Notes under the pieces: model-generated
What the model was told of the DNA's origin: nothing
The model's database searches: none
Seen by the model: the letters and a program-made list of their open reading frames with translations, nothing else
Made by a program: the position numbers and the translations under genes
In this document: positions 20,108 through 56,989 of the stretch, in pieces
Layout: each line of letters starts with the position of its first letter
How positions within the stretch are numbered: the stretch's first letter is position 1
Assembly (NCBI GenBank): GCA_963769425.1
Contig: CAVYLP010000006.1
Location: 160,001 to 224,000, forward strand
Direction: 5' to 3'
Length of the DNA: 64,000 nt
From: Candidatus Bathyarchaeota archaeon
GTDB lineage: Archaea; Thermoproteota; Bathyarchaeia; TCS64

Positions 20108-20337
20108 CCCATTTTGCAAGGTTGAGGTCCCAAGGAAAAATGCCAACTATGTGCGACTCAAGGTAAGAAGAGAATCGTTAGGACGTGAAATAGATAAGCA
20201 GATTGAGTTTTTTATTGTAAACAACGCTGTTTACAAAGAAAAGAAATATAATGTTATGAAGAAATACTCCACAAACGTTAATTCTCATTTTGTCATAAAT
20301 CTATTCTAAATGCCATTCAGCTTCAAGGAGAGAAAAA

Positions 20338-21879
20338 ATGGCGGCCAATAAAAAAATCGACGTTCATAAATTTATTACAACAATCTATAATCCTAATTTA
20401 AACGAATTTATGAATTCCGTTTCGGATAACGGATTGGGATCATCTATCTCTGAAGGACGAATAATATATGGAAAAAATAAGCTTAATTTGTCTTCTGACG
20501 GTTTTTCCTTATTTCAAATTAGAAATAACGTCTTCCATTTAGGCGCATCACAGTCATCGGATTTTAGTGTGGATTATGATTCCTTCCTTTTATCCCTTGA
20601 ACCCCTGTACAAGTTCTATCTAAAAAACAGGGGAAATCATTTATCGAAGAAAATTGAGGATGTTTTAAGATCGACTGATTTAATGCTAGAGACTGATTAT
20701 TTTTCAACTAAACTATCTAAAAATGAATCCTACCAAGAAAATTTCAGTAGAGGTATTATAGACAGAAATTCTATAGGTGTTAAAAAATTTGAACAAAGCT
20801 ACAATGACTATCAGGGTAAGAAATTATTGGATACAGAATTGCATCTGAAAGAAAATGAGTCAAAAAAGGTCTCTGAAGGAACCTATGAAAAAATTGGCCC
20901 AGAGGAAGCATATGAATTTGATTCTTCATCAGGATTCGTGAGAAAGAAGGAAGAAGTGGATAAATGGTCAGAAGAGAAATTCTATAGTGAAGTCGGTCTT
21001 GGTGGACCTCAGAAATGGGGGGAAGGTCTACGAAGCATGGGTCCTAAAAACAAGAAAAACAGGGGACACATCAAAGTAGCTATTATCCTATCGATAATAT
21101 TAATAGGAACATATTATGTCACCACAACTTCTCTTCTTTCAGAATTCAGTGGTTTTCTTCAAACCCAAATGGCGGTAATTTCTTCTACACTAAGCTCTGT
21201 GGGCAAAGTAGAAAATGGCGATAGCTCTCAACTCCCAATCATTACCTTCTTTTCAAATAATACTGCTACAACTGGCAGGTATAAAAATTATCAACTTGGG
21301 CTTATCAAAGCTCCTGGGGGAGTCGAAGTAAATAGTTATGGAGATTTTATAGTCTTAATAAATAATAAGAATGCTAAGAATCCAACATACACTCAACTTA
21401 CTAGCTTTCTAAAATCAGATAAAACTGATCAGTATTCATATCAATTTGTTACCACCACCCTTGGCAGTTATTCTGGAAGTGCGGAAAGTTACGTGGATTT
21501 GAATACAATAGAAGAAATAATCGATGGCACGAAACAGCCGAATCCTCCTCGGATATGCGCTGACTTCGCTGAATTACTTCATAATAATGCCGAAAGAGCT
21601 GGCATTCGATGTGCCTTTGTATCTATCGAAGTTGGTGGTTCGGGACATACTTTAAATGCATTTGAAACGATTGATAGAGGATTAGTTTACATTGATGATA
21701 CTGGTTATCTGAGCGGTTTCAGCCCATCAAGTTGTGATAAGATAATTAATGTTCTAAAAGTGGGTAGTCAATACAGCCCAAATAGTCTATTCCCCGAATC
21801 TGGTTGGAGTTCAACTTGGGAAAATGCTGGAACCGTCACAAGCATTTACATGACCTGGGATGGCAACTGGAATAATTAG
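20338..21879 (+). CDS. AT-rich membrane protein with a C-terminal transglutaminase/papain-like Cys-His-Asp domain
   Basis: Central TM (IKVAIILSIILIGTYYV); CADFA..LHNNAE.AGIRC, GHTLNAFET.DRGLVYID. Confidence 0.65.
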   Translation: MAANKKIDVHKFITTIYNPNLNEFMNSVSDNGLGSSISEGRIIYGKNKLNLSSDGFSLFQIRNNVFHLGASQSSDFSVDYDSFLLSLEPLYKFYLKNRGNHLSKKIEDVLRSTDLMLETDYFSTKLSKNESYQENFSRGIIDRNSIGVKKFEQSYNDYQGKKLLDTELHLKENESKKVSEGTYEKIGPEEAYEFDSSSGFVRKKEEVDKWSEEKFYSEVGLGGPQKWGEGLRSMGPKNKKNRGHIKVAIILSIILIGTYYVTTTSLLSEFSGFLQTQMAVISSTLSSVGKVENGDSSQLPIITFFSNNTATTGRYKNYQLGLIKAPGGVEVNSYGDFIVLINNKNAKNPTYTQLTSFLKSDKTDQYSYQFVTTTLGSYSGSAESYVDLNTIEEIIDGTKQPNPPRICADFAELLHNNAERAGIRCAFVSIEVGGSGHTLNAFETIDRGLVYIDDTGYLSGFSPSSCDKIINVLKVGSQYSPNSLFPESGWSSTWENAGTVTSIYMTWDGNWNN

Positions 21880-21892
21880 GATATGTATTAAA

Positions 21893-22246
21893 ATGGCTAA
21901 AAGAAGACGAGGAACAGCTATAGTTGATACTCTCGATGGTATTTTGGTAGTCAGTCAAGATGGGAAAACATTTCTTCTTCCTGGTGGAGGTGCCAAAAGC
22001 AACGAGAGTAGGATGAATGCTGCGTTGAGAGAACTCACTGAGGAGACTGGTTTAGTTCCTACGGGATGTATTTTTCTTTTTGAATACGAATCTCATACCA
22101 CGTTCCACAAAGTATTTTTAATAAAATGTTCAGGTATCGCAAAACCAAGTCATGAAATAAGATACGTTACTTATTTTACTGGTAACAATGTAAGATTATC
22201 ATCTGGGACTAAGGCTATCTTAGAAAAATATTATGCCATGAATTGA
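21893..22246 (+). CDS. NUDIX hydrolase
   Basis: Nudix box GGGAKSNESRMNAALRELTEETG. Confidence 0.9.
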   Translation: MAKRRRGTAIVDTLDGILVVSQDGKTFLLPGGGAKSNESRMNAALRELTEETGLVPTGCIFLFEYESHTTFHKVFLIKCSGIAKPSHEIRYVTYFTGNNVRLSSGTKAILEKYYAMN

Positions 22247-22335
22247 GGTATAAACTGGAAAAAGGCTAATCTGCGCAAAATTTTGGTTAATGGAATTTAT
22301 AAAATACAATATTAATCATTTGCTGGTGAGCGTTC

Positions 22336-41591: not shown

Positions 41592-41719
41592 ATAGAGCAA
41601 GCTAAGCGAGACCAAGGGTTATATCAGGGGATACTTTTAATATAAAATACCCCAAAATGGGGCTGAAAATGGTTTTTATAAAACGTAGAGGAGTTATTTT
41701 ATCTCCGCGCGCGCTGTGC

Positions 41720-43564
41720 TTACTTGTTGTCGGTTGTTGCCTCGACACCTTTCTCTTCTTTGAATTGCATCTTGTAGAATGAGCTGTAAAGTCCATTAAG
41801 CTTCATCAGTTCGAAGTGTGATCCCTTCTCGACGATTCTCCCCTGATCTATGACCAGGATCTCGTCACAGAGCCTAATCGTTGAAAGTCTATGAGCTATT
41901 ATTATCGCCATTCTGTTTTCAAGGAGTTTCTTCAACGCGTTTTGTAGCACGAGTTCGGTGTAGGGGTCTATGCTTGAGGTGGCCTCGTCTAGGATCAGTA
42001 GCTTTGGGTTCAGCAGAAGTGTTCTTGCGAAGCTTATCAGTTGTCTCTGTCCTATCGAAATGTTTGATGAGCCTTCCTCTATGATGTAGTCGTATCCTCC
42101 GGGTAGTTTCATTATGAAATCATGTGCACCGACGGTTTTGGCTGCCTCGATAACTGCCTCGTCGGATGCGTCGGGTTTTCCGAATCTAATGTTATCTCTT
42201 ACGCTGATGGCAAATAGGAAGGAGTCCTGGAGAACAGTGCTCATGTTTCCTCGAAGAGATGCGATCGTAATATCCTTGATGTCGTGTCCGTTTACTAGTA
42301 TTCTCCCGCTTATGGGGTCGTAGAACCTCTCAAGGAGATTTATTATTGTGCTCTTACCAGCGCCTGTAGGCCCGACTATGGCGAGCTTCTTTGAACCTTC
42401 TAGATCCAGGTTTACGTCGTGTATGACTGGATTTTGTGGGTCGTAACCGAATGTGATGTCCTCAAATTTCACTTCATTTATTGTATCAATCTTTATGGCT
42501 TTGTCTGGCGAGGGATCATCTACATCAACTTTAGTGTCTACTAAGTCGAAGATTCTTTCTAATGCGGACATGCATGATTGGTATTGGTCATAAGCGGTTA
42601 GGAACGTGGTGAGTGGTCCAAAATAGTTGAACTGATACTCTAGGAACGCTGCGAGTATTCCTAGGTTGATCTGGCCGTTTATAACGAGAATTGTGCCATA
42701 CCATAGTATTAGTACTGTTCCAACAATCCTCATAGTCAGTATGAGTGGTGTGTATATTGTTGATAGGAGGATGGTGCGTTTGTATGATTGAACAGTTTTT
42801 TCATTAACAACATCAAATTCTTGTTCAGCCTTATCTTCTTTTACGAATGCTTTTACGATCTTCATTCCTGCGAAGTTCTCTTGCATCTTGGCTATCAGGC
42901 CTGCAAGATTTGTGAGAGTCTTTCTATACTGTTTTCTTGATAGTCCTCCCATGACCCATGTCATGATTACTGCTATTGGAAGGATCGAGACTGCTAGTAA
43001 TGCAAGTTGCCAGTTTAGGAAGAATATTATTACCAATGCGCCTGCAATTGAGGCCGCATCGAGAATCATCGCTGTTAATCCCATTCTTAAGAATATTCTG
43101 ACCTGGTTTGCGTCTGTTGTCGGCCTCGACATTATACGCCCTATCTCTCCTTCTGAGAAGTACTTGAGCGATATTTTCTGTAATTTAACGGTACACTGGT
43201 TTCTAAGATTCATTACGACGTGTTCGCCGACGATTCTCATCTGATATGTCTGAATGTACTGGAAGACGTAGGTGGCTATTGTTACCCCGATGAATAGGGG
43301 GACCCACCAGATGAACGCTGAGATATATGAGCTATCGCGATTCTGTATTGTTGGAGTTATTATATTGTTTATAGCGATTAGGTGGAGGTATGGTGTGACA
43401 AGCCCCGTAAATGCACCTCCGGCGATGGCGATTGTGCCGAGAATCAAGTTCTTCTTGTAAACTACTATGTAATCCCAGAGTCTACCGATTAGTACTCCGT
43501 CAGCGACTTTTCTCTTCCCTCTCTCCTCCACTTTTGTTGAGAAGGTATTATGTTCATCAGACAA
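41720..43564 (-). CDS. ABC exporter half-transporter (TMD+NBD), subunit B
   Basis: GPTGAGKS, ISIGQRQ, ILDEATS, AHRLST; TTG start right after the partner's stop. Confidence 0.92.
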   Translation of the reverse strand: MSDEHNTFSTKVEERGKRKVADGVLIGRLWDYIVVYKKNLILGTIAIAGGAFTGLVTPYLHLIAINNIITPTIQNRDSSYISAFIWWVPLFIGVTIATYVFQYIQTYQMRIVGEHVVMNLRNQCTVKLQKISLKYFSEGEIGRIMSRPTTDANQVRIFLRMGLTAMILDAASIAGALVIIFFLNWQLALLAVSILPIAVIMTWVMGGLSRKQYRKTLTNLAGLIAKMQENFAGMKIVKAFVKEDKAEQEFDVVNEKTVQSYKRTILLSTIYTPLILTMRIVGTVLILWYGTILVINGQINLGILAAFLEYQFNYFGPLTTFLTAYDQYQSCMSALERIFDLVDTKVDVDDPSPDKAIKIDTINEVKFEDITFGYDPQNPVIHDVNLDLEGSKKLAIVGPTGAGKSTIINLLERFYDPISGRILVNGHDIKDITIASLRGNMSTVLQDSFLFAISVRDNIRFGKPDASDEAVIEAAKTVGAHDFIMKLPGGYDYIIEEGSSNISIGQRQLISFARTLLLNPKLLILDEATSSIDPYTELVLQNALKKLLENRMAIIIAHRLSTIRLCDEILVIDQGRIVEKGSHFELMKLNGLYSSFYKMQFKEEKGVEATTDNK

Positions 43565-43565
43565 T

Positions 43566-45410
43566 TTATTGATCGACCTCCAGTATCTCTTCGGGGGTCT
43601 TCTCAAGGAACTGTGTCTCGTATATTTTCTTGTATACCCTTCCCTTAGCCATTAGTTCATTGTGTGTTCCGAACTCGATGATTTCGCCATCATCAAGAAC
43701 CATTATTCTATCGGCATTCTTTATTGTTGAGAGCCTCTGGGCGATTATGAAGCATGTTCTACCCTTCAAAGCTTCATCAATTGCATCTTGTATTGCCTGT
43801 TCAGTCTTTGCGTCCACGAATGAGAGAGAGTCGTCTAGGATCAGGATCTTGGGGTTCGTTAACAGAGCCCTTGCGATGGTAAGCCTTTGTTTCTGGCCTC
43901 CTGAAAGGGTGACACCTCTCTCACCAACAAGTGTATCGTATCCCTCTGGGAGTGTCTCAATGAAGTCATCTATCTTGGCCATTTTTGCAACGGCTTTGAT
44001 CTCATCAATAGATGCGTCGTCTCTTCCAAATGCGATATTACTTTTTATTGTGCCCGAGAACAGGAATACGTCTTGAAGGACTAGCCCTACCTGTTTTCTG
44101 AGGAATGAGACCTTAAAATCCCTGATGTCTGTTCCATCTATTGATATGTTCCCTGAGTTGATGTCATAGAATCGGGGGATTAGATATACCAGAGATGTTT
44201 TTCCTGTTCCAGTTGCTCCGAGAATGGCTATTTTTTCCCCAGGATTAGCTATGAAACTGATGTTTTTTAGTATAGGTCTGTCCTTGACATATCCAAAAGT
44301 CACATCTTTGAATTCAACTTCTCCCTTTTCTATTTTGACATCTCTTGCATCTGGTCTGTTTATTACATCTCCGGGCAGATCGATTATATCGAAGAGTCTT
44401 TCGGATGCAGCTGTTGCGTTACTGAGACCTCCTATGAAGAAATGACTAAAATCACGAATGGGCCCAGTCGATCTCAAGACATACCTCGCATAGATCAGTA
44501 TCAACCCAAGTGACAATCCTAATGATAATATCATGTCTGTCCCGTAGACGTAGACTAATGTGATGCTCAGCGTTAGTATGGCAGTTGCAGAAGGCATGTA
44601 TATTGCTTGGATCTTCCCTGCTCTGATTGCGATGTCAACGTATTTTTCGTTAATATCTCTATCACCCACCTGCATTTCGTCTTCTCGTTGAAATATTCGG
44701 ATATTTTTCATTCCCACGATGTTCTGTTGCACATAAGAGCCGATTCGTCCTAAGATTAGCTGCATCTTCCTGAAGAGTGGCATCGTCAGCATGAAGTTCT
44801 TGGACTGGAAATAGAAAATGAAGGGAAGGGGTAACATCGCTATTACCGCCATGACCGGGTTTAACGTATAACATACCCAAAATATGAAAATCAATGTGAA
44901 AACAAGATTAGTTAATGTGCTAACCCATATTCTGAGGAAGCCGTCTACAAACATCAGTTCCTGTGTTGGCCTTGAGGTAAGGTCTCCTACAGGATTTGTG
45001 TCAAAAAAAGTAAAGGATTTTTCTTGACATGATTTGTAGTATTCCTTTCTTATATTTCCCATAACCATCTGCGAGACTATACCATTTAGGTATATTATTA
45101 CCCAATTGACTACAGCGAAACCTACTACCGCCACAAATATGTAAAGGAGTAAAGTTGAAAGAAGAGCAATATTACTAGTTGTCGGAGGGTTGCTTCCAAT
45201 AACGTAATCTATGAGTTGAGAGGTATACAGAGGCTCAAGAAGAAATAAGAATGATCTTAAGATAGCTAGCGTAGAAATGAAGACAATAATTGGGGTATAG
45301 GGTTTATGATATACCATAAGTCTCCTAAAAGCCTTTATTTGAGTAGAGAGGGCTTTTCGATTCTCCTCAATGGAATCGATATATCCAAGAATTGGTTTGG
45401 CAACAGCCAT
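43566..45410 (-). CDS. ABC exporter half-transporter (TMD+NBD), subunit A with degenerate Walker B
   Basis: GATGTGKT, LSGGQKQ, ILDDS, AQRLS (TM287/288-like heterodimer). Confidence 0.92.
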   Translation of the reverse strand: MAVAKPILGYIDSIEENRKALSTQIKAFRRLMVYHKPYTPIIVFISTLAILRSFLFLLEPLYTSQLIDYVIGSNPPTTSNIALLSTLLLYIFVAVVGFAVVNWVIIYLNGIVSQMVMGNIRKEYYKSCQEKSFTFFDTNPVGDLTSRPTQELMFVDGFLRIWVSTLTNLVFTLIFIFWVCYTLNPVMAVIAMLPLPFIFYFQSKNFMLTMPLFRKMQLILGRIGSYVQQNIVGMKNIRIFQREDEMQVGDRDINEKYVDIAIRAGKIQAIYMPSATAILTLSITLVYVYGTDMILSLGLSLGLILIYARYVLRSTGPIRDFSHFFIGGLSNATAASERLFDIIDLPGDVINRPDARDVKIEKGEVEFKDVTFGYVKDRPILKNISFIANPGEKIAILGATGTGKTSLVYLIPRFYDINSGNISIDGTDIRDFKVSFLRKQVGLVLQDVFLFSGTIKSNIAFGRDDASIDEIKAVAKMAKIDDFIETLPEGYDTLVGERGVTLSGGQKQRLTIARALLTNPKILILDDSLSFVDAKTEQAIQDAIDEALKGRTCFIIAQRLSTIKNADRIMVLDDGEIIEFGTHNELMAKGRVYKKIYETQFLEKTPEEILEVDQ

Positions 45411-45767
45411 TTTCAGGACTTCGTTAAACAATAATCGATTAGTAAATACTTATACGCTTATCGCTGGGTTAAACTGTCTGGATAAAAATTGGACAAATGT
45501 TTGCCTGTATTTTTTAATTTGACAGGTAATACGCACGTAAACTTGAAATATGATGGGTTGAATAACAGGTTGAATCAACTGGTGGTTTACCTGTCAAAAA
45601 GAATTGAGGCCTTTCTATATTATGGTCTAAGCGCGGTTGTAGTGATCGTCATCGTTATCCTCATACGCTCCATCAATATTGCAGCATAAATACATTCAAC
45701 GATTGCAAGTTTTTTAACTCAAATTGTAAGCATAAGTTTATTAAAATTGAAAAATAATTAAAAAGTA

Positions 45768-46352
45768 ATGGAGTCTTCTTCTAGATTTTCGATTTTTGTC
45801 ATCATATTGTCCCTCAGCTCTATCTTAGGATTCGCTGAAGGTTTTTTTATATGTTACGTCTTCACATTAAATGCATATTATTTGTCGGCCACACTTGGAT
45901 TCAGCCTTCTATTAATTGGTAGCTTGTTTTGGTTTTACTTTTATTTCATGAAGGTCGAACCATATTCCTCGAATACTAGTGCACCCCTTACCCAGATGCC
46001 TGTTACACGAGACTTTGTTAATCCTACCTACCGTAGAGTTCCGATTGATATCCTGGAGGCTCAGGAGGGTAGAGAACACCTCGTAGACATCGTAGAAAAT
46101 AATAAAACTATTCATATTATCGCTGAGCTTCCAATCGTTGGCATGAGTTATGTTAACTTCAACTGTTTAGGTAGGATGCTCATCCTCTCTTTCGACGTTG
46201 GAAACAATAGGTACTATAAAGATATCGAACTTCCATCTATGGTCAATTCCAATAGTGGTAAAGTTAAATTAAATAACTGGATCGTTGAATTAGATTTAAC
46301 AAAGATTAAAATGGAGAATTTGGAAGAAGATCAGTTAAAGCAAGAGTTTTGA
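45768..46352 (+). CDS. two-TM protein with C-terminal Hsp20/alpha-crystallin-like domain
   Basis: VDIVE...IIAELP, YYKDIELP, NNWIVELDL. Confidence 0.65.
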   Translation: MESSSRFSIFVIILSLSSILGFAEGFFICYVFTLNAYYLSATLGFSLLLIGSLFWFYFYFMKVEPYSSNTSAPLTQMPVTRDFVNPTYRRVPIDILEAQEGREHLVDIVENNKTIHIIAELPIVGMSYVNFNCLGRMLILSFDVGNNRYYKDIELPSMVNSNSGKVKLNNWIVELDLTKIKMENLEEDQLKQEF

Positions 46353-46556
46353 CTAATTAAGTAATCACCTACTCGAAGAAATCCAAGGTTTGGTCAACCA
46401 TTTTTTTTGAGCAAGTTTAATAGAAAACTGTGAATTATCTAGGCTTCCTTAAGTTTCCTTATCAAATCACTCATGGAGTATTAATCGTATTGTAAGGGAT
46501 GAGGTTAAAGCTAGACGAAAATGACTGAGAAGGGTATAAGTGAAGTAACCTAATAC

Positions 46557-49142: not shown

Positions 49143-50333
49143 TTAGACGAGCTTCTTGTTTATTGGCTTGGTTTCCTTCGCTATTAGGCTTGGTACGAAG
49201 GCTACCGCGAAGAGAATGGATGATAGGTAGAAGGTCCATGAGGCGCCCTGGGCGGCGAGCACCCAAGTCATTATAATCGGGCCGGTTATTGAGCCCAGGT
49301 CGAAGAAGGTGCGGTACGTCCCGACGGCGGCCCCCCGGCTCTCCGCCTCAACCGACTCCGCGGCGAAGACTGGGCCGATTATCCAAATCGCCCCCGTCGT
49401 AATCCCGAGTAGGAAGAAGATAGCCGATGTCATGACGAGCCCGGAGACCAAAGTCAACGGCAGGACCATTACGGCGGTCGCCGCGATCCCGAACATCAGG
49501 ACCGGTTTTCTGCCGATCCTATCGGATATCATCCCCATAGTGAATATGGCGAGGACGTAGCCGATGGACATGGCGCCCATTATGATGCCTATGTCAGTCA
49601 GGCTCATCTTCAGGGTCCCGTTGGCGTACAGCGGGTAGGTTGTGTAGAGTACACCCTGGCTCACCACGAAGGAGACGAATGTCGCTAAACATACGGTGAG
49701 GAGCGTCCTGTTGCGGAACATCTTCGGGATGTCGGAGAGGTTCATCGGCCGGGACTTCGGGATGGTTAAGGCTTCTTTCTTGATTCTCGGTATTAGTATG
49801 AGGGCTACGGCGATGACGCAGAGTATGGCGGCGAGTATGAAGCCGCCAAAGAAGCCGAGCTCGGTGATGAGAAACCCGCTGACGGTTGAGCCTAGGATGG
49901 TCCCGCTGAATTCGATCCCCTGGAATATCCCCATCGCGCTCCCTCGGGTCTCGATGGGAAACATGTTCAGGATGAGGGTCATCGAGACGGCGAAGAAGAG
50001 GGGCGCGCCGAATCCCTGCAGCCCCCTCGCTATGATCAGCTGAACGGGGTCCGTGACGAAGGCGTTATAGAATGTGCCTATCGTGGTGAGGATGAGGCCG
50101 AGGAACATGGGCCAGTAGTAGCCCCAGCGGGAGGAGATGAAGCCGCTCGGTATCTCGAGCAGCACCCTCGCCACCCAGTAGGCGGCGACGCTGAAGCCTA
50201 TCATCACACCCGTGGCGCCTAGCGACTTCGCGAATATCGAGAGGAGGGGGTTGATCAGACTCGTGGAGAACATTGCGAGGAGGGCGACGACGCATAGGAT
50301 TACGTAGGAAACGCTGTAGCCTTTTCGCGACAT
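49143..50333 (-). CDS. MFS transporter
   Basis: About 12 hydrophobic segments, G.ISDRIGRK motif A. Confidence 0.92.
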   Translation of the reverse strand: MSRKGYSVSYVILCVVALLAMFSTSLINPLLSIFAKSLGATGVMIGFSVAAYWVARVLLEIPSGFISSRWGYYWPMFLGLILTTIGTFYNAFVTDPVQLIIARGLQGFGAPLFFAVSMTLILNMFPIETRGSAMGIFQGIEFSGTILGSTVSGFLITELGFFGGFILAAILCVIAVALILIPRIKKEALTIPKSRPMNLSDIPKMFRNRTLLTVCLATFVSFVVSQGVLYTTYPLYANGTLKMSLTDIGIIMGAMSIGYVLAIFTMGMISDRIGRKPVLMFGIAATAVMVLPLTLVSGLVMTSAIFFLLGITTGAIWIIGPVFAAESVEAESRGAAVGTYRTFFDLGSITGPIIMTWVLAAQGASWTFYLSSILFAVAFVPSLIAKETKPINKKLV

Positions 50334-50374
50334 TGTACCCTTAGCGCTCTATATCTCGTTATTATAAGTCTGGT

Positions 50375-50383
50375 GATCTTCGG
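50375..50383 (+). repeat. target-site duplication, left copy (GATCTTCGG)
   Basis: Identical 9-mer directly outside both terminal inverted repeats. Confidence 0.93.
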
Positions 50384-50407
50384 GATACTGTTCAGTCTTT
50401 TGTCATA
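50384..50407 (+). repeat. left terminal inverted repeat GATACTGTTCAGTCTTTTGTCATA
   Basis: Exact reverse complement of 56288-56311. Confidence 0.95.
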
Positions 50408-50422
50408 GTAGGATTTAACTGA

Positions 50423-51571
50423 CTATGTGATGGACGGGATTGGTTGAAGATCTCTCTCTAACTCAAGATTAGTTGTGTTGGATATTTTCTTTACCGGGTA
50501 AACGCTGAATGCCTCTTCAAAACTATCGGCTTTTCTAAACTTCTTGACTAATCCTTCGTAAGGAGGAAATGCCCCCCCATAACCAAGTATTCTCCTTGCG
50601 TTACCAACCATTTTTAATTGTTGATCCGTCCATAATGGTGATTTAAACTGGTTTTTTTCCAATGAGGTTAATGGTTCATATCTCATTGGATAAGATACAC
50701 ACCCTAGATCTGCAACTAATCGCGTTCGTTCAAAAAATGAATACGGATTATCACCACCGTAACTTTCATCGTAAAAATTGTAAATTGTGTAAAAGAAGAT
50801 CTTCCGTTTTCTTATACCACTTTGCGAAAGACGTTCTATGGCTTTTGTAACCTGTATTTTTTCATTATTATCATCAAACGCAGTCCTGATTATAGGAGTT
50901 GTTAGATCCGCTATCATACGGGCTTTCTCATCATCGATGAGACGACAATCAATTCCTTGGTTAAAATCAACAGGCAATCCTATGTCCCGTAGAGCAACAA
51001 GCATTTTTCTCCAATTTGGAGATGCAAGGATATTATTATCCCATAGAATAATTCTCTTATGACCCGGATAGACATAACGCTCTAACTCTTCTATTACAGA
51101 ATGAATCTTCCCTTCTAGTTTTGGAACAATGCAAAAAGGGCAGCTTCTGATACATCCTCTTGAAGTGAAAAGGATTGTACTATCCCATTTTTTCCATCGT
51201 TCGACATCATCTAAAATATCATATGCTGGAATGTAACTATCCGCTTTCTCAAAAAGTCCTGTGTGAACCTCTGTAAATGGAAAAAATGATTTAACTCTCT
51301 CAGACATTAATGATGCATAAATTCCTCCAACCCGTATCCTTGCATCAAGATATTTAGCATGGTAAAATTCGATTGCCTCATGCACCGGTTTCCATGCATA
51401 GGTGAATAAGGAGGTTATTTCTACAATATCAGGTTTAAAACTCCCATCCTCCTCCATACCATGGACGAGTTTAACTTGGTTACCTCTGGAACGATGGTAC
51501 GAAGCTAACTTGAGTAATCCGAGGGGAGGGAAACCGCTATAATATGCGGGCTCAACGAGCAGAACTTTCAT
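50423..51571 (-). CDS. radical SAM protein with N-terminal B12-binding-like domain
   Basis: SRGCIRSCPFC (CxxxCxxC), PPLGLLKLASY, VGGIYASL, DNN, DFNQGID.RL. Confidence 0.88.
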   Translation of the reverse strand: MKVLLVEPAYYSGFPPLGLLKLASYHRSRGNQVKLVHGMEEDGSFKPDIVEITSLFTYAWKPVHEAIEFYHAKYLDARIRVGGIYASLMSERVKSFFPFTEVHTGLFEKADSYIPAYDILDDVERWKKWDSTILFTSRGCIRSCPFCIVPKLEGKIHSVIEELERYVYPGHKRIILWDNNILASPNWRKMLVALRDIGLPVDFNQGIDCRLIDDEKARMIADLTTPIIRTAFDDNNEKIQVTKAIERLSQSGIRKRKIFFYTIYNFYDESYGGDNPYSFFERTRLVADLGCVSYPMRYEPLTSLEKNQFKSPLWTDQQLKMVGNARRILGYGGAFPPYEGLVKKFRKADSFEEAFSVYPVKKISNTTNLELERDLQPIPSIT

Positions 51572-51619
51572 AGGGAATGAAGCAATTTTAGGGGATAAAA
51601 ATGTTTCTGATAAAAATGG

Positions 51620-51660
51620 AAAAAAGGATCCAATAATGTATTTTATTATGGATTCCCTTT
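51620..51660 (-). terminator. putative terminator after the GHKL ATPase gene
   Basis: Minus-strand GGAATCCATAAT...ATTATTGGATCC hairpin followed by T6. Confidence 0.4.
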
Positions 51661-53436
51661 TTAAAGGTCTTTGACATTCTTGGATTTCTCTATCAATCGA
51701 AGTATGAGGTCTTGTGTCATGAGAAATTCTGTCATCGTATCAATTTTCTCTTCATCACTCATGGTTTCATAATATGAAAAAGAAATCTTCCCTCTTTCAT
51801 GCTTGTATGGATCAACGAATAAGTAATGGAGTGCAGAAATCATGGCTCCGAAGAGACGGTCACGGTATCTATCCTCGTTATTTGGTTTTTTATTAGCTAG
51901 AGTAAGAATAGGACCATTATCTCCTCTCTCAACGTTTTTCCAGTCAAAAGATCTTTGAGATAATTCCGCTATCTCACTGATTGTTAACCCTGTTTTTTGT
52001 CTTAGTAGATTTGCCACTGGGTCCATAGCATCAATGTTCAATTCCAATTTACCCCTCTTTGTTGTTAGTCTTAGATGTTCCTTAAGTTCAGGATGGCATG
52101 CTTTCGTCAATTCTGAAAGTCTCTCCATTTTTTCTTTGATGAGATCAGAAGGTTCTTCTTTTGTTTTTTCAAGGATTTCTTTTTCTAATTCTTCAATAGA
52201 TTTGGTTTCTTCCGCAGATTTCAAGTCAATTGCTTCTTTCATTTTCAATAAAGCAGGGTCTTTAGGAAAGCTTCGTTTTTGTTTTAACTTTTTCTTTAGT
52301 TTTACAATGGTGTTATTAGCATATTTTAGTTCACCAGAATTTACATCTTGTTTTATATGTTCTATGGTTTTTGTATTAATGTTATGTGATTGATAACGGT
52401 TCTGCTCTTGTACACTTCCTATAAAAACTCCTACTTGTTCATTTAATGGTTCGAGAATGTCATTATTTGCTTCAAAATTATTACGTGGAGCATTTTCCTT
52501 TAAATCATCAGTTATTATATGAATTTCTCCATATTGCCATTGATTAAACATACCATCGTGTTGTTTTATTACTAGATTTTCATCCCCGATTGTGATGCCT
52601 TTTTTCTTAAAATAAATGCCTCTGTTTGGAGGCTTTAATACACTATTGTTTTTGCCTGTAATGAGCCAACAATATGCTACTGGTTTTCCATTTATAACTA
52701 ACTTCTTATCGATGATAGTCTCAAAGAAAAGGTCATTGTTGTATGGAGGACGGAATATTTTTTGGTTTTCAAAGAAAATCTCTGCCATTTCGGTCTTGAT
52801 GCCATTTTCTGAAAGCCTCTTGTTAATCTCCTTTCCTAATGTAAATTTATCGGTATCGAATGGTGCAGGAAGATTCTGTGATAGATAATCCGTAATAAGA
52901 TTATCAGTGAATATCGTGTGTTGATTCGGTAGCATTTCCTCAAGTCTAACGGTCGTAAAATGCGATTCTTCAAGTGTTTCATCTTTTCCTAATTCAATAT
53001 TTTCAATGTTTCCCGTGATGTTATTTAATACTTCAATGGCTGGTTTGTTTAAGGTATATTGATCTCTTAACATATCTGCGTTTATTTCTACTCTGAACTT
53101 TGGATGACCCTGTTTTTTAGTTATTATAACAATTCTTCGACAAACAGGAATACCACTCCATATTCCAATTCCTCTCCAACCAATTAGTTCCCCAGATTTT
53201 TCGCTTACACCAAGATATAATGATTTTTCTAATTCTTTCTCATCCATACCACACCCATCATCTTTTATTATTAGATCAATATGTTTATTCTCAAAATACA
53301 CATCGACACGTTTTGCTCCTGCATCAAAGCTATTTTGGATGTATTCACGAAGGCTGTTTCTATTTCCATCATACAATCCTGCCGTAACTGCCTCAAGAAG
53401 TCTGGCACCAAAAGCTTCATTGGTAAATAATACTAA
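51661..53436 (-). CDS. GHKL (HATPase_c/MORC-like) ATPase; true start uncertain (ORF track starts at 53376)
   Basis: REYIQNSFDA (motif I), DDGCGM (II), GWRGIG (III), FTTV.L (IV), GEIHI and NAPRNNFE in the S5-like domain. Confidence 0.85.
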   Translation of the reverse strand, partial: LVLFTNEAFGARLLEAVTAGLYDGNRNSLREYIQNSFDAGAKRVDVYFENKHIDLIIKDDGCGMDEKELEKSLYLGVSEKSGELIGWRGIGIWSGIPVCRRIVIITKKQGHPKFRVEINADMLRDQYTLNKPAIEVLNNITGNIENIELGKDETLEESHFTTVRLEEMLPNQHTIFTDNLITDYLSQNLPAPFDTDKFTLGKEINKRLSENGIKTEMAEIFFENQKIFRPPYNNDLFFETIIDKKLVINGKPVAYCWLITGKNNSVLKPPNRGIYFKKKGITIGDENLVIKQHDGMFNQWQYGEIHIITDDLKENAPRNNFEANNDILEPLNEQVGVFIGSVQEQNRYQSHNINTKTIEHIKQDVNSGELKYANNTIVKLKKKLKQKRSFPKDPALLKMKEAIDLKSAEETKSIEELEKEILEKTKEEPSDLIKEKMERLSELTKACHPELKEHLRLTTKRGKLELNIDAMDPVANLLRQKTGLTISEIAELSQRSFDWKNVERGDNGPILTLANKKPNNEDRYRDRLFGAMISALHYLFVDPYKHERGKISFSYYETMSDEEKIDTMTEFLMTQDLILRLIEKSKNVKDL

Positions 53437-53666
53437 GGTAGATCCCTCTGTGTTTCATCATAGTATCAACCGCTTATATCTTATATGTCTCTATAACTCT
53501 TAAGGTTCTTTCCATTCTCGATTTTAATTTTAATCTTATTCATTGCTTTCTGAATCAATACTATTTTCTCTAACCCCCGTCAAAGAGGTGTCAGTGATTT
53601 AGGTATCCTAGGGGTATACCACAAGAGATATATAATTAGGGTATCCTGTAGGATATCTGTAGGAGT

Positions 53667-54590
53667 TTGGGAAAGATGAGTTGCAAGTACTGTGGGTCCG
53701 AAAAAATCGTCAAGAACGGAAAAGTCAAGGGAACACAGGTTTACAAGTGCAAGGAATGTGGACACAGGTTCTTCCAGAACGGCAACTTCTCAAAGATGCA
53801 GAGCGAGAAGCGGATCATAGCCGCAGCCTTAAACTTCTACTATGATGGACTATCGCTGAGAAAGGAGCAGCGCAACCTAGAGCAGATCTTCGGGGAACAC
53901 ATCAGCCAAGTTACAATCCTCAATTGGATTAAGAAGTACTCTAAGCTAGTCAAGGAGTATGTCGAGAAGCAGGCACCCCAGCTTTCAGGTCTCTGGCATG
54001 AGGATGAGACGATGCTAGGCTGTGAGGGGCGGAACATCTGGTTCTGGGAGATGATCGATGAGGACACCAAGTTCATGGTTGCAAGTCATATCTCAAACAC
54101 ACGAACATTTGAGGACACGATAGCCATATTTGATAAAGGGTTACAACAGAGCAAGGAGCGGCCTAAAGCCGTGTTCGTTGACGGGTGCAACGCATACAAA
54201 TCAGCGTTCAACAAGGTCTTCTATAGCAGGTACAAGACAGAGAAGGTAGAACTAGTACAACGAGTAGGGATAAGGGCTAGAGAGACAAACAACTCAATCG
54301 AGCGTCTACATGGAACCCTTAAGGACAGAACGAGGTGCATGAAAGGGCTACACAGCTACGAATCAACGAAACTGCTACTTGAGGGCTGGTCGGTTTACTA
54401 TAACTGCGTTAGGCCACATCAGAGCCTAGGCAACAGGACGCCGGCACAAGCAGCAGGGATGAATGTTCCAAACATTTGGCTGGGGCTCATAGAAGCGGCA
54501 ACCAAAGAAGAGGCGGTTGAATCAGTAGAAAAAATAAAGGGAGTAGAACCATTTTTGGATATGATGCAACTTGAGGTGAAAACGCGATGA
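53667..54590 (+). CDS. IS6/IS1-like DDE transposase with N-terminal Zn ribbon
   Basis: CKYC/CKEC Zn ribbon, HTH (GLSLR...SQVTILNWI), WHEDET, FVDG, NNSIERLH, YN..RPH.SL..TPA. Confidence 0.92.
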   Translation: MGKMSCKYCGSEKIVKNGKVKGTQVYKCKECGHRFFQNGNFSKMQSEKRIIAAALNFYYDGLSLRKEQRNLEQIFGEHISQVTILNWIKKYSKLVKEYVEKQAPQLSGLWHEDETMLGCEGRNIWFWEMIDEDTKFMVASHISNTRTFEDTIAIFDKGLQQSKERPKAVFVDGCNAYKSAFNKVFYSRYKTEKVELVQRVGIRARETNNSIERLHGTLKDRTRCMKGLHSYESTKLLLEGWSVYYNCVRPHQSLGNRTPAQAAGMNVPNIWLGLIEAATKEEAVESVEKIKGVEPFLDMMQLEVKTR

Positions 54591-54751
54591 AGAAGGTGCT
54601 AGTGGCTTTACCGGATGAAGTAGTTAACATGGTAGACACCGAACTGAGTGGAAAACTTGGCGATGGTAGGAGTGACACGCTGAGAACCATAATCATGAAT
54701 TGGCTAGGTGAAAAGGGATATCTGACAAAGGAGGGCAAGTCAAGTGAATAA
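54587..54751 (+). CDS. ribbon-helix-helix (CopG-like) protein, 54 aa, not in ORF track
   Basis: MKKVLVALPDEVVNMVDTELSGKLGDGRSDTLRTIIMNWL; ATGA overlap with the transposase stop; GAGGTGA SD. Confidence 0.75.
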   Translation: MKKVLVALPDEVVNMVDTELSGKLGDGRSDTLRTIIMNWLGEKGYLTKEGKSSE

Positions 54752-54887
54752 AACCAAAAAAGAACTCGAAGAAGAGGTTGAACTACTGAGCACAATGCTT
54801 GAGAGTTTAGTACAACTACTTGAGGAAAAAGGGGTACTAACGCAAGTCGAGTGGGAAAGAACAATTAAAAATAACATAGTCTTATAG
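54744..54887 (+). CDS. small helical protein, 47 aa, not in ORF track
   Basis: GTG start with GGAGG SD, overlapping the RHH stop; LESLVQLLEEKGVLTQVEWE. Confidence 0.65.
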   Translation: MNKTKKELEEEVELLSTMLESLVQLLEEKGVLTQVEWERTIKNNIVL

Positions 54888-54990
54888 GGTTCTGGTAACT
54901 TAACGGACCTAAGCAATTTGAAAAACGAGTGATAACTAGCGGAACATATTCTAAAAAACGAACTCATGGAATTTGGGAATGCAAATAAAG

Positions 54991-55374
54991 TTAAATTAAG
55001 TCATCTGTCTTCCACTGTGGAAGTCGCTCAGCTTCAGCAAATGCATTCCGATAACGAAGACCTCGTTCAATGGCTTCTCTAGTGTGATATGCCGATACAT
55101 GCAACTCGCCTCCCATGTGAGGAACCTGACTGATTATACCCTCAGAAACTAGTTGTTTTAAAGCCCTACTCCAATGCTTCAATTTGCCTTTTTCGTATCC
55201 ACTTTTCAGATTTGTTTCAGTGTGATGTTTTATTTGATTTCCATCACGGCCTACCCAACAACCATGGTAATACAACTTATTGACTATAAACCCCTTGATA
55301 TGGGCGAGATCACCTTTGTTTAACCCCGTATTGATTCCCCATGGGTAATAATAGGATCTACCTATGACATACAT
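54991..55374 (-). CDS. hypothetical protein, possible winged-helix
   Basis: IKGFIVNKLY...KHHTETNL..G...ALKQLVSEGII; start uncertain. Confidence 0.6.
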   Translation of the reverse strand: MYVIGRSYYYPWGINTGLNKGDLAHIKGFIVNKLYYHGCWVGRDGNQIKHHTETNLKSGYEKGKLKHWSRALKQLVSEGIISQVPHMGGELHVSAYHTREAIERGLRYRNAFAEAERLPQWKTDDLI

Positions 55375-55485
55375 ATAAACTCTTGGTAAAATAAAACAAT
55401 CTCTTAAGACAATCTTAATATGTCCGTATATTGTTATACAATAACAATACACACAAGTATAAATAAATGAGACAAAACAGATAGA

Positions 55486-55872
55486 ATGAGACAGAAAGAA
55501 AAGGAAGATGCTAGTATGGCCCCAGCAGGTAGCCGGAGATGGGGCGAAGACGCTTCAGATACGGAGGAGTATGCAGTTAGCGGCCCGTTGACGAGGCTCT
55601 TTGATTGCCCCACAGCCAGAGTGCTCGATCAGGCTTCATTAGTAGGTAAGATGGAACAAACGATCTCGATGCTAAAAGAGAGCACCAACCTAAGTTACAA
55701 GACTGTGGAAAAAGCTGTGAAGAAGTTGTTAGATCAGAAATTGATGGAGAAAGGCCGACGGATTGGGAATGCAAATACATACATCTTTCTCACAGAAAAT
55801 CACCTAAGTCAATTGATTGCTTGTGCCAACAAAATACAATTGGAGCATGTGAAAGAGCAATCTGAAAAATGA
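55486..55872 (+). CDS. winged-helix DNA-binding protein
   Basis: LF..PTARVLD, TISML.ESTNLSYKTVEKAVKKL, RRIGNA.TY. Confidence 0.75.
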   Translation: MRQKEKEDASMAPAGSRRWGEDASDTEEYAVSGPLTRLFDCPTARVLDQASLVGKMEQTISMLKESTNLSYKTVEKAVKKLLDQKLMEKGRRIGNANTYIFLTENHLSQLIACANKIQLEHVKEQSEK

Positions 55873-55901
55873 TTTTTGATTCTTTTTAAAAAATAGATTT
55901 G

Positions 55902-56201
55902 TTAAAGTTTCTTTTGAACCATCTCTTTTTCATGTTTTATTTCTGGGGCCTCCTTAAACATACTTGAAGTCGGAGGTCTACTTTGCTTCACTCCCTTTAG
56001 AAGCTGTTCGATTGTTAGAATCTGAATCTGGGCTGTAGATCCCTCTCCTGAAGTCTCTTTGAATAGAACGTTATAATCGGCTTTGCTGTTGAATGCGGGA
56101 TCTAAGTAAATCAGGTCAACGGATTCGTCTTTGATGAATTTCCTCATGACCGTTAGATTATCGCCGTAATAGAGGGTATTCACGAAATCCGGATTAGACA
56201 T
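55902..56201 (-). pseudogene. internally deleted N4/N6 DNA methyltransferase (R-M type) remnant
   Basis: N-terminal LYYGDNL..DESVDLIYLDPAFNS joined directly to C-terminal IQILTIEQLL; only about 100 codons. Confidence 0.8.
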
Positions 56202-56287
56202 CAAGGATACACTGTCTTTGAACATTTAAAAGAAATTGGATTAAGCGGTTATCGGTTTCTAATAGGTATCCACGCTTTACAGTACCA

Positions 56288-56311
56288 TATGACAAAAGAC
56301 TGAACAGTATC
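56288..56311 (-). repeat. right terminal inverted repeat
   Basis: TATGACAAAAGACTGAACAGTATC, reverse complement of the left TIR. Confidence 0.95.
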
Positions 56312-56320
56312 GATCTTCGG
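56312..56320 (+). repeat. target-site duplication, right copy (GATCTTCGG)
   Basis: Identical to 50375-50383. Confidence 0.93.
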
Positions 56321-56377
56321 TAAGCCTTTTATTCACGTTCCTACTCTTCCCCTCTGCAATCCGAGGCGATCGGCCAA

Positions 56378-56989
56378 GTGAGCGAAGAACCAGAAGTTAC
56401 AATCGAGGCCACTACAGCGGGAACCGGCGGCATAAAGCTATTCGGCGAGTGGAGCTTCGAGAACATAGAGGTCCGGGACCCCGGCCTCAAGAGGTACCTA
56501 AAGATCTCTCCCGTCTTCATGCCCCACTCCGGTGGTCGCCACGAGGCCAGGAAGTTCCAGAAGAGCGAGATGAGCATCGTTGAGCGCTTCACCAACGACC
56601 TCCTGAAGCCAGGAAGCAGCGGCGGCGACAAGCCACGCGTCATGAACGCGGTTAGGACGGCCTTCAAGATCGTCTACGTAAAGACGGGTAGGAACCCCAT
56701 AGAGGTGCTCGTCCGCGCGGTCGAGAACTGCTCGCCCAACGAGGACACGACTCGCATCGGCTACGGTGGTGTCGTCTACAGACTCGCAGTCGACATCTCA
56801 CCCCAGCGCAGGATCGACCTCGCCCTGAGATTCATCGCGAAGGGAATCAAGGAGCAGACCTTCGGCAACAGGAAGACCTTCGAGGAGATCATCGCGGACC
56901 AGCTCGTCGGCGCCGCCCAGAACGACGGCAACAGCTTCGGCGTCCGAAGGAAGCGCGAGATGGAGCGCGTAGCGCAAGCCTCTAGGTAA
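56378..56989 (+). CDS. rps7: 30S ribosomal protein uS7
   Basis: KLFGEW, PHSGGRH, SIVER, NPIEVLVRAVEN, AVDISPQRR.D, ERVAQASR. Confidence 0.98.
   Translation: MSEEPEVTIEATTAGTGGIKLFGEWSFENIEVRDPGLKRYLKISPVFMPHSGGRHEARKFQKSEMSIVERFTNDLLKPGSSGGDKPRVMNAVRTAFKIVYVKTGRNPIEVLVRAVENCSPNEDTTRIGYGGVVYRLAVDISPQRRIDLALRFIAKGIKEQTFGNRKTFEEIIADQLVGAAQNDGNSFGVRRKREMERVAQASR

Follow-up and report, generated by a model that had tools for sequence, protein, structure and literature searches.

An IS6-like Unit Transposon with a Fixed Core, Variable Cargo Arms and a Probable Defence Module in a Bathyarchaeota Archaeon

Here, we analysed a stretch of 64,000 nucleotides (nt) of DNA from a Candidatus Bathyarchaeota archaeon (GenBank assembly GCA_963769425.1, contig CAVYLP010000006.1, positions 160,001 to 224,000 of the forward strand), which is referred to as the window and in which all positions are counted from the first nucleotide. 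The data make it very probable that positions 50384–56311 constitute an intact IS6-like unit transposon with a fixed core and variable cargo arms, whose cargo is a probable defence module. An earlier reading of the letters alone, hereafter the original prediction, had portrayed this segment as an unusual single element. The structure was upheld by our analysis; the singularity was not, since the same build characterises an entire clade, found mostly in metagenome-assembled genomes (MAGs) of Bathyarchaeia, of which this element is typical.

Termini, Target Duplication and Empty Site

A perfect inverted repeat (24 of 24 positions) bounds the element, a low-GC segment of 5,928 bp in which 5,880 nt separate the two arms. 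As revealed by repeat and genome searches, the left terminal inverted repeat (TIR), GATACTGTTCAGTCTTTTGTCATA, is located at positions 50384–50407 on the plus strand, and its exact reverse complement forms the right TIR at positions 56288–56311 on the minus strand. The tip of the TIR, GATACTGTT, contains an IS6-like cTGTt motif. Directly outside both ends we observed the 9-mer GATCTTCGG, which represents the target site duplication (TSD) at positions 50375–50383 and 56312–56320 (9 of 9 identical). The left junction reads ...TAAGTCTGGT GATCTTCGG / GATACTGTTCAGTCTTTTGTCATA... and the right junction ...TATGACAAAAGACTGAACAGTATC / GATCTTCGG TAAGCC.... Allowing up to three mismatches, the 24-mer occurs at only two places in the window, with none expected from 100 shuffles, and a search of the whole genome of 2,551,316 bp returned the same two sites only. 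Thus, the complete unit with perfect TIRs and a 9-bp duplication, as claimed by the original prediction, was fully borne out. The GC content ranges from 0.31 to 0.49 within the element versus 0.53 to 0.61 in the flanks.

The left flank was searched in 40 relatives of the host, and both flanks were then aligned to the loci returned. In two genomes of the same genus, G008 and G012, the alignments of the left and the right flank overlap by exactly 9 bp, with identities of 83% and 95% (left and right, respectively) in G008 and 75% and 88% in G012. The empty site in these genomes reads ...TAAGTCTGGTGATCTTCGGTAAGCC..., with one copy of GATCTTCGG between ...TAAGTCTGGT and TAAGCCTTTTATTCACG.... Likewise, a contig from a peat metagenome (X4) joins position 50374 to position 56312, skipping 5,937 bp, with nine ambiguous letters that can be assigned to either flank; the X4 flanking contigs are approximately 90–93% identical to the flanks in the window. 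All three sites lack exactly positions 50384–56320, which correspond to the element and one copy of the 9-mer, and each retains a single copy of the duplicated sequence. The insertion therefore postdates the split of the host lineage from the sampled congeners and is recent, as proposed by the original prediction, which had also anticipated such an empty site. A simple insertion, as worded there, is indistinguishable from a resolved cointegrate, since one copy flanked by a TSD is compatible with both.

The sharp change in GC content at both ends, together with a MAG-like assembly with 4.9% contamination, might also be expected of an assembly chimera in which low-GC foreign DNA was misjoined into a high-GC contig. 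However, perfect TIRs together with the 9-bp duplication of a stretch present only once in the relatives would not arise from a misjoin. Moreover, a contig of 227 nt (X2) crosses the occupied left junction at positions 50299–50523 with one mismatch; this contig argues only against an assembler artefact, as it may derive from the source sample and then would not provide independent support. We consider a chimera extremely improbable.

The insertion site is intergenic, located between a major facilitator superfamily (MFS) transporter gene (49143–50333, minus strand) and the gene for ribosomal protein S7 (56378–56989), with the S12 gene just upstream. The element divides the divergent MFS/S7 intergenic region of approximately 107 bp (50334–50383 and 56321–56377). 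TATA-like AT-rich motifs are left on both sides, namely TTATTATAA at positions 50359–50367 and CTTTTATT at positions 56326–56333, and the intergenic block on the S7 side is strongly conserved within the genus. Judging from these motifs, the promoters of both genes may have survived the insertion. The flanking genes were also compared with those of other archaea. An Atlas search with S7 gave a mixture of archaeal phyla, and the S7 protein is 50–53% identical to that of three Bathyarchaeia genomes and one Nitrososphaeria genome, 49–60% identical to sequences from the class of the host (outside its order) and 40% identical to that of Methanolobus. All named homologs of the MFS protein (52–61% identity) are labelled Bathyarchaeota/Bathyarchaeia. 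A methanogen of the Methanomassiliicoccales type was considered as host and dismissed, as the genome (91% complete) yielded no MCR alpha subunit.

The Transposase

A single transposase gene is located in the middle of the element. The open reading frame (ORF) at positions 53667–54590 (plus strand) encodes 307 amino acids (aa), with a CxxC...CxxC zinc finger followed by a DDE domain as indicated by profile searches; translation probably begins at the ATG of position 53676. The protein matches the NCBIfam model transpos_IS6 (NF033587) with 129.7 bits at the protein level and 130.8 bits at the genome level at a cut-off of 125, and this was the only full-family model that scored above its cut-off. 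In addition, Pfam DDE_Tnp_IS240 matches at 1e-19. The catalytic residues D113, D172 and E212, the lysine K219 (E+7) and the cysteines C6, C9, C28 and C31 (ORF numbering) are invariant or nearly so in 32 full-length homologs. The ORFs, the IS6 hidden Markov model (HMM) and these residues corroborate the original prediction of one intact D-D-E transposase of IS6-like type with passengers on both sides.

In the protein database we found 714 homologs at E ≤ 1e-3, the best being 88% identical; many of them are named IS6 transposases of Bathyarchaeota, and some sources use the name 'IS1/IS6 family transposase'. Among the best matches listed from plasmid records, 14 of 15 rows carried an annotation under the match, which read 'IS6 family' in all 14 cases. 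The fullest plasmid matches are ISCpe7-type Clostridial proteins, which align over 85% of the length, zinc finger included, at approximately 27% identity. Among the 40 host relatives, one encodes a full-length homolog (31% identity), and a PDB sequence search with the transposase returned zinc-finger noise only.

We also observed a second, more distant group of transposases (30–39% identical, frames of approximately 370–460 aa) in many Bathyarchaeia genomes, among them G129, G134, G135, G158, G286, G298 and G322. These genes are often present in multiple copies, some with internal stops.

A Clade of Related Elements

By means of peptide patterns of this transposase, 48 related loci were retrieved from named MAGs in a species-dereplicated collection, which makes them a biased sample of the clade. 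The loci stem mostly from Bathyarchaeia, a few from Nitrososphaeria/Thaumarchaeota, and one each from Methanolobus vulcani and Methanomethylicus. Their ends were determined by a TIR scan, followed by a de novo search for inverted repeats around each transposase and finally by a rule that combined a regular expression for the tip with arms identical at 17 or more of 24 positions. This procedure yielded a bounded element with an internal transposase in 38 of the 48 loci. In the genome of the host, the TIR search that the original prediction had suggested returned only the two ends of this element; related elements with other cargo are present in the MAGs.

Among the 38 elements, the TSD is an exact 9-bp repeat in 32, matches at eight of nine positions in one, is an exact 8-bp repeat in two and matches at seven of eight positions in one; two elements lack a duplication. 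When the element in the window is included, an exact 9-bp TSD surrounds core and cargo in 33 of 39 elements, and the three duplications of the 8-bp type are all found in more distant members. The two TIR arms match at 24 of 24 positions in 16 elements, at 23 in 13, at 22 in six, at 21 in two and at 17 in one. The elements are 833–7,988 bp long (median 4,066 bp; at least 3 kb in 32 of 38), with arms of 106–4,671 bp to the left and 143–3,435 bp to the right of the internal transposase. The closest relatives, with at least 69% transposase identity, all measure 3.4–8 kb, and the smallest intact forms of approximately 1.9–2.2 kb occur in more distant members.

The tip GATACTGTT recurs in the 38 related elements. 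The TIRs diverge in step with the transposases: the close clade has GATACTGTTAAG..., whereas more distant members have GATTCTGTAAAC..., GATACTCTTGCG... and other variants. This indicates that the ends are tied to the enzyme. The same tip was found in a miniature inverted-repeat transposable element (MITE) of 325 bp (L090, positions 5404–5728), which is non-coding, has the same 23-nt TIRs and is flanked by a 9-bp duplication matching at eight of nine positions. This MITE is derived from the transposon subtype described here. When metagenome contigs were scanned for the exact TIR subtype, we obtained eight loci, including this MITE, a complete element of 5,379 bp with a transposase 83% identical and without TSD, as well as several lone ends with differing inner sequence.

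No near-identical full-length elements were found at different sites, the best mutual coverage being 0.67. As no pair of elements shares more than 67% of its length, each carries its own combination of cargo; the lack of near-identical copies is expected with one genome per species. The elements without TSD (L029, L037 and L094) could be compatible with intramolecular events or with recombination between copies. In L022 (5590–11425) the two ends belong to differing TIR subtypes (17 of 24 positions matching), yet the element is flanked by a perfect 9-bp TSD, and in L044 (approximately 11649–11698) two right ends of different subtypes abut each other. Both loci hint at an exchange of arms or a replacement of ends between sub-lineages.

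The Conserved Core

A blastn comparison of the window element with the 37 others revealed homology only at positions 53596–54874 and 56026–56128, the latter corresponding to a methyltransferase stump. The former, 1.28 kb in length and located on the plus strand, represents the core module, which comprises a promoter, the transposase gene and two small ORFs. Many of the matches start at positions 53596–53602 and end at positions 54856–54874. Grouping the 289 mechanical ORFs of the 39 elements into 143 clusters placed a transposase ORF in 38 of 39 elements.

The edges of homology coincide with the promoter and a stop codon, and no TIR-like sequence abuts the core. This bears on the question whether the outer repeats belong to some other non-autonomous or composite structure, such as a pseudo-compound transposon or a nested insertion sequence, in which the central transposase is not the mover. 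According to the parts of a 2021 review available to us (PMC7986276), IS6 elements form cointegrates and move cargo only between two IS copies, as pseudo-compound transposons. The difference in GC content between the core (approximately 0.48) and the cargo arms (0.31–0.40) would fit such a structure as well. In contrast to a pseudo-compound transposon, however, the whole genome contains one transposase gene of this type and two ends, which are inverted rather than direct repeats. Moreover, 38 elements show this association of TIR and core, and their TIRs have diverged in parallel with the transposase. A composite origin, against which these observations argue, we regard as very improbable.

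The putative promoter is located at positions 53602–53657 (plus strand), before the start codon, and consists of a palindrome, GGTATCCTAGGGGTATACC, a TATA-like box, ATATATAA, and a second palindrome, GGTATCCTGTAGGATATC. The layout of palindrome, TATA-like box and palindrome is kept in divergent members, where the palindrome differs (ATATCC...GGATAT). The promoter is putatively autoregulated. A site shared by the end-binding of the transposase and the promoter palindromes was considered as well and was rejected, the half-site resembling the TIR tip in the close clade only.

Downstream of the transposase gene we identified two small ORFs on the plus strand. ORF1 (54587–54751, 54 aa) overlaps the stop codon of the transposase gene and is CopG/ribbon-helix-helix-like, an assignment that we take as a lead. 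ORF2 (54744–54887, 47 aa) starts with GTG, overlaps ORF1 by 8 nt and encodes a helical, acidic protein. In the window this pair was masked by an antisense ORF in the filter and was located by hand. Among the 38 related elements, 28 carry one or two such short ORFs (approximately 54 aa) right behind the transposase, and both mini-proteins are conserved even at approximately 50% transposase identity. In a Nitrososphaerales MAG (L059, 2493–2804), whose element is flanked by an 8-bp duplication, the two are fused to a protein of 104 aa. Ribbon-helix-helix regulators have a β-strand at the N-terminus and two helices, and form dimers. In the AlphaFold2 (AF2) monomer model of ORF1 (pLDDT 63), a disordered N-terminal stretch is followed by two helices. 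The nearest Atlas clusters of ORF1 are automatically named CopG family transcriptional regulator (0.96 and 0.91), and a PDB profile search with ORF1 returned nothing meaningful. The predicted complex of ORF1 and ORF2 scored 0.02 and is used as evidence neither way. We favour the notion that the two small ORFs encode autoregulators of the core.

The shared core of 1.28 kb, as compared with shared tips of approximately 24 bp, makes recombination within the core the simplest route by which arms could be re-assorted. We infer that whole arms have been exchanged between elements in this way.

Cargo of the Clade

In 28 of the 38 transposase-bearing elements, the one in the window included, mechanical ORFs of at least 100 aa are present on both sides of the core, and in 10 on one side. 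Among the cargo clusters, an N6/N4 methyltransferase fused to Mrr (cluster C3; representative with Pfam N6_N4_Mtase and Mrr_cat) is present in seven related elements, in six as a full-length gene and in L036 as an 84-aa piece, in addition to the stump in the window. A UPF0175/DUF3368 PIN-like pair (C8-C9; PDC-S70) was found in five elements, HsdR_N with an N6 methyltransferase (C12) in three, a GmrSD type IV restriction enzyme (C13) in three and an NYN nuclease (C14; HEC-09) in two. Cluster C10, with weak matches to winged helix-turn-helix (HTH) domains of the MarR/ArsR type only, is present in four elements, and clusters C4, C7 and C11 belong to no family.

A Pfam census of 89 cargo ORFs of at least 150 aa from 35 elements returned N6_N4_Mtase (7), Mrr_cat (4), N6_Mtase (3), GmrSD_N/C (3), Eco57I (3), UPF0175 (3), Methylase_S (2), NYN (2), NA-iREase1 (2), RE_SacI (1), D12 methyltransferase (1), ParB_N (1), ParA-like (1) and PIN (1). 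The PADLOC matches on the cargo agree with Pfam, and most other cargo ORFs are without family. By cluster membership, 16 of the 38 elements carry at least one gene of the defence-type clusters. Taken together, these results provide good support for a cargo of defence and DNA-modification type in the clade, rich in methyltransferase, restriction and toxin-antitoxin genes.

Cargo of the Element in the Window

The left arm of the element carries two genes on the minus strand. The first encodes a radical S-adenosylmethionine (SAM) enzyme of 382 aa (50423–51571) with a CxxxCxxC motif and a weak Pfam Radical_SAM match. Its stop codon is located 15 nt from the left TIR, and its N-terminus we take to be B12-binding-like. 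The second, an ORF of 571 aa (51661–53376), encodes a MORC-like GHKL ATPase (HATPase_c_3, 2.7e-15). The AF2 model of the ATPase, built from an alignment of 40 sequences, reached a pLDDT of 88. The best folds in the PDB are the ATPase modules of MORC2, MORC3 and MORC4 (E 3e-12 to 5e-11, 369–466 aligned columns), with modest TM-scores (0.36–0.54) and with Hsp90 and GyrB close behind. In the model, an ATP-binding domain of the GHKL type precedes a transducer domain with S5 fold, as in MORC and paraMORC.

The ATPase family comprises 56 representative clusters at E ≤ 1e-30. Its named members are patchily distributed (Bathyarchaeia, ANME-2, Methanomassiliicoccales, an Asgard archaeon, Methanoregula and a Lachnospiraceae bacterium), and homologs were found in none of 300 sampled Bathyarchaeia genomes, in one of 400 other genomes of the host phylum and in three of 401 Halobacteriota genomes. 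At all three Halobacteriota loci the ATPase occurs together with a radical SAM gene. In G939 (L103, 5778–8802) the order and strand of the two genes are as in the window, with a gap of 64 nt (89 nt in the window) and a radical SAM enzyme 55% identical to that of the window; this pair adjoins a TIR-NB-ARC-TPR gene (TIR denoting the protein domain). In G1139 (L105, 7663–11982) the ATPase gene is accompanied by a convergent radical SAM gene (44% identical) and a DndB-like gene, with an HD-domain gene alongside. G958 (L104, 2925–8908) encodes a closer ATPase homolog and an adjacent divergent ATPase–radical SAM pair.

Homologs of the radical SAM enzyme are present in 15 of the 300 Bathyarchaeia genomes, and a DndB-like gene follows in three of the four Bathyarchaeia loci inspected. 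That this DndB-like partner might be a homolog of the window ATPase was ruled out (BLASTP E 0.12). In L087 (3412–11315) and L088 (7583–15244) the radical SAM and DndB-like genes lie beside a conserved trio of ResIII/PLD helicase, SMC-like ATPase and Schlafen/AlbA_2 genes, and may be part of a larger multi-gene defence island. The ATPase–radical SAM modules are low in GC everywhere (0.34–0.37, with flanks of 0.54 in G939), and no related transposase or TIR was found beside them outside the window, which argues that the pair is a mobile module itself.

Prokaryotic MORC and paraMORC ATPases were proposed to act in restriction-modification systems in the accessible part of Iyer, Abhiman and Aravind 2008 (PMC2292703). 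The ATPase in the window resembles them in its GHKL and S5 modules, its patchy distribution and its defence-type neighbourhoods. Helicases and nucleases are named as partners there; the conserved partner observed here is instead a radical SAM enzyme, which may be accompanied by a DndB-like protein. No PADLOC model matched the ATPase–radical SAM pair, and in the titles and first parts of abstracts that we searched there was no description of a radical SAM enzyme paired with a MORC/GHKL ATPase or with a DndB-like protein. The pair is probably a defence module of the DNA-modification or restriction type. The assignment of a defence or DNA-modification cargo by the original prediction thus stands at the level of the family, as indicated by the Pfam and PADLOC census; for this copy we infer it from the MORC-like fold, the conserved pairing with the radical SAM gene and the methyltransferase fragment.

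The right arm contains three ORFs. One of 153 aa (54991–55452, minus strand) belongs to no confident family and has no homolog in the other 38 elements. The second, of 128 aa (55486–55872, plus strand), is winged-HTH-like, with weak matches to MarR, Csa3 and PDC-M05A. The third (55902–56225, minus strand) is the 5′ stump of an N6/N4 DNA methyltransferase gene of cluster C3, with 107 aa and weak methyltransferase matches. Its intact relatives comprise 450–590 aa and are often Mrr nuclease fusions; the DNA homology mentioned above (56026–56128) falls within the stump.

Elsewhere in the window, we observed two further low-GC islands at approximately 20300–22250 and 41700–46400 (GC 0.35–0.47 versus approximately 0.60), for which no bounding repeats were found. 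One of them contains an ORF of 513 aa without family and a NUDIX gene, and the other, adjoining EF-1alpha, two ABC exporter genes and an ORF of 194 aa without family.

Discussion

According to the same parts of the review of the IS6 family (PMC7986276), its members mostly measure 0.7–0.9 kb, few reaching up to approximately 1.7 kb (maximum approximately 1.76 kb). They contain one transposase ORF of 220–250 aa, or 340–350 aa in the zinc-finger clade h, as well as inverted repeats of 15–20 bp with a GG tip and a cTGTt (plus caaa) motif, and generate 8-bp repeats. The element in the window agrees with this description in its DDE transposase, which matches the IS6 HMM and has a K at E+7, and partly in its TIR tip, which begins with G and has CTGTT at positions 5–9. 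The second letter of the tip differs (GA instead of GG; GG was found in only three of the 38 relatives, L023, L035 and L049), and there is no clear caaa. The N-terminal zinc finger is reminiscent of clade h (ISCpe7-type), at an identity of only approximately 27%. Passengers located within the ends, and a whole unit flanked by one TSD, are features of a transporter IS (tIS) or unit transposon, and the element in the window shows both. The only passenger-carrying IS6 member listed in this part of the review is ISDsp3. It resembles the element described here in that its ends enclose a passenger along with one IS6-type transposase. Compared by its description, ISDsp3 carries one hypothetical passenger in one bacterial genome, whereas here a whole archaeal clade carries variable cargo.

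Several observations weigh against the interpretation as an intact, mobile IS6-like unit transposon with a regulated core. The IS6 score lies only just above the cut-off (129.7 versus 125 bits), and the element departs from the IS6 description in its 24-bp TIR, its 9-bp TSD, its size of 5.9 kb, its two extra ORFs and its internal cargo on both sides. No bounded element was found at 10 of the 48 loci (L040, L041, L046, L047, L048, L051, L058, L064, L066 and L067), which include contig ends and partial genes. Moreover, the rule for end-finding rewarded a matching TSD, which causes a slight bias toward finding TSDs. The promoter palindromes and the TIR tips do not co-vary in divergent members, and Pfam RHH_1 matched only two of 20 members of the ORF1 family, weakly (E approximately 0.06). 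No movement was observed. The transposase and the TIR pair are single-copy in the genome, no second copy with the same cargo is present among the eight metagenome loci sharing the TIR, and the viral contigs contain no relative of the transposase. Finally, the cargo shows signs of decay: the methyltransferase gene is reduced to a stump, and the ATPase frame remains open and homologous upstream to approximately position 53436 (approximately 20 codons) without an ATG, GTG or TTG. This stretch (53377–53436, minus strand) clearly resembles the N-termini of relatives (...LVLFTNEAFGARLLEAVTAG...). Either the canonical start of the ATPase gene has been lost, or an unusual start is used.

The single copy, the truncated methyltransferase gene, the ATPase gene without canonical start and the elements L029, L037 and L094 without TSD would also be in keeping with an immobile fossil that inserted once and is now decaying. 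On the other hand, the TIRs match at 24 of 24 positions, the TSD is perfect, and the uninterrupted transposase frame retains every catalytic and zinc-binding residue. Likewise, the small ORFs and the promoter palindromes are intact, so that decay is confined to the cargo. We therefore consider a fossil improbable and retain the interpretation as an intact transposon.

Since the transposase and, to a large part, the TIR agree with IS6, and the TSD length, the size, the number of ORFs and the cargo do not, we class the element as an IS6-type variant and not as an ordinary member of the family. The name 'IS6/IS1-like' given by the original prediction is appropriate in its first part, given the HMM score above cut-off; the resemblance to IS1 does not extend beyond the zinc finger and the 9-bp duplication. 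For IS1, a 9-bp target duplication and TIRs of approximately 23 bp are the norm, and the IS1/IS1595-type zinc-finger domain model NF050000 passes with 42 bits at a cut-off of 28. The NCBIfam IS1 model (NF033558) aligns to residues 6–195 with 71 bits and thus remains below its cut-off of 100; in contrast to IS1, the element lacks an insA/insB frameshift arrangement and has TIRs of IS6-like sequence. Taken with the naming of some homologs as 'IS1/IS6 family transposase', the identity of approximately 27% to annotated IS6 transposases and a TSD of the IS1 norm instead of the 8 bp described for IS6, these data could point to a separate family between IS1 and IS6 that lies outside IS6 and that ISfinder might classify, or have listed, otherwise. 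This alternative appears rather unlikely, as IS6 is the sole full-family model above cut-off, the TIR tip carries the cTGTt motif described for IS6, the E+7 lysine is present, a zinc finger is also found in IS6 clade h, and three more distant members have 8-bp duplications (two exact, one matching at seven of eight positions). We therefore continue to assign the element to the IS6 kind.

Tn7-like elements are known to carry defence cargo. Tn7-family elements were also reported in archaea, according to the accessible part of a preprint (bioRxiv 10.1101/2025.07.27.667033). Like Tn7-like elements and the Tn3 family, the transposon described here is one bounded unit with variable defence cargo. 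Unlike these, it has no TnsABC- or Tn3-type machinery and no resolvase, relying on a one-protein IS6-like transposase and two tiny accessory ORFs, and the cargo is located on both sides of the transposition genes.

We propose the following scenario. The single transposase, a distant zinc-finger member of IS6, would bind the 24-bp repeats at both ends and join these ends to a target whose two strands are cut 9 bp apart; repair of this stagger would generate the duplication of GATCTTCGG. The whole 5,928 bp moved as one unit into the MFS/S7 intergenic space after the split from the sampled congeners. By analogy with IS6, the chemistry might involve a replicative cointegrate and its subsequent resolution, or a direct insertion. 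The cargo arms would be exchanged between elements through recombination in the shared core, and the two small overlapping ORFs would regulate the core.

More tentatively, the elements may constitute an undescribed clade, possibly a new family or sub-family, of archaeal 'defence-shuttle' transposons with a three-gene core (a zinc-finger IS6-like transposase, a CopG-like and a helical mini-protein), a two-operator promoter and interchangeable arms re-assorted by recombination in the core. Such transposons would disseminate genes for restriction, modification and toxin-antitoxin functions among Bathyarchaeia and further archaea of sediments and peat. In the window, the cargo would then be an undescribed DNA-modifying or DNA-policing system in which a MORC-like ATPase acts with a B12-type radical SAM enzyme and optionally with a DndB-like protein. 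This broader proposal is possible, yet we hold it with less than even confidence. In the titles and beginnings of abstracts that were searched, with ISfinder outside the search, no description of the clade was found.

In the parts of the literature considered here, IS6 elements are known as compact elements that move genes only by bracketing them in pairs. The element in the window, verified by its empty site, follows a different design, which holds as a rule throughout an archaeal clade: a central transposase with cargo on both sides, a 9-bp duplication and two conserved mini-proteins. The finding bears on the boundary between insertion sequences and transposons and on the capacity of IS6-type chemistry to handle long units, as well as on how defence genes travel between uncultured archaea, where known vehicles are few. 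Moreover, the approximately 60 uncharacterised cargo genes of the clade are candidates for defence functions, the first among them being the pair of MORC-like ATPase and radical SAM enzyme, which is conserved across phyla.

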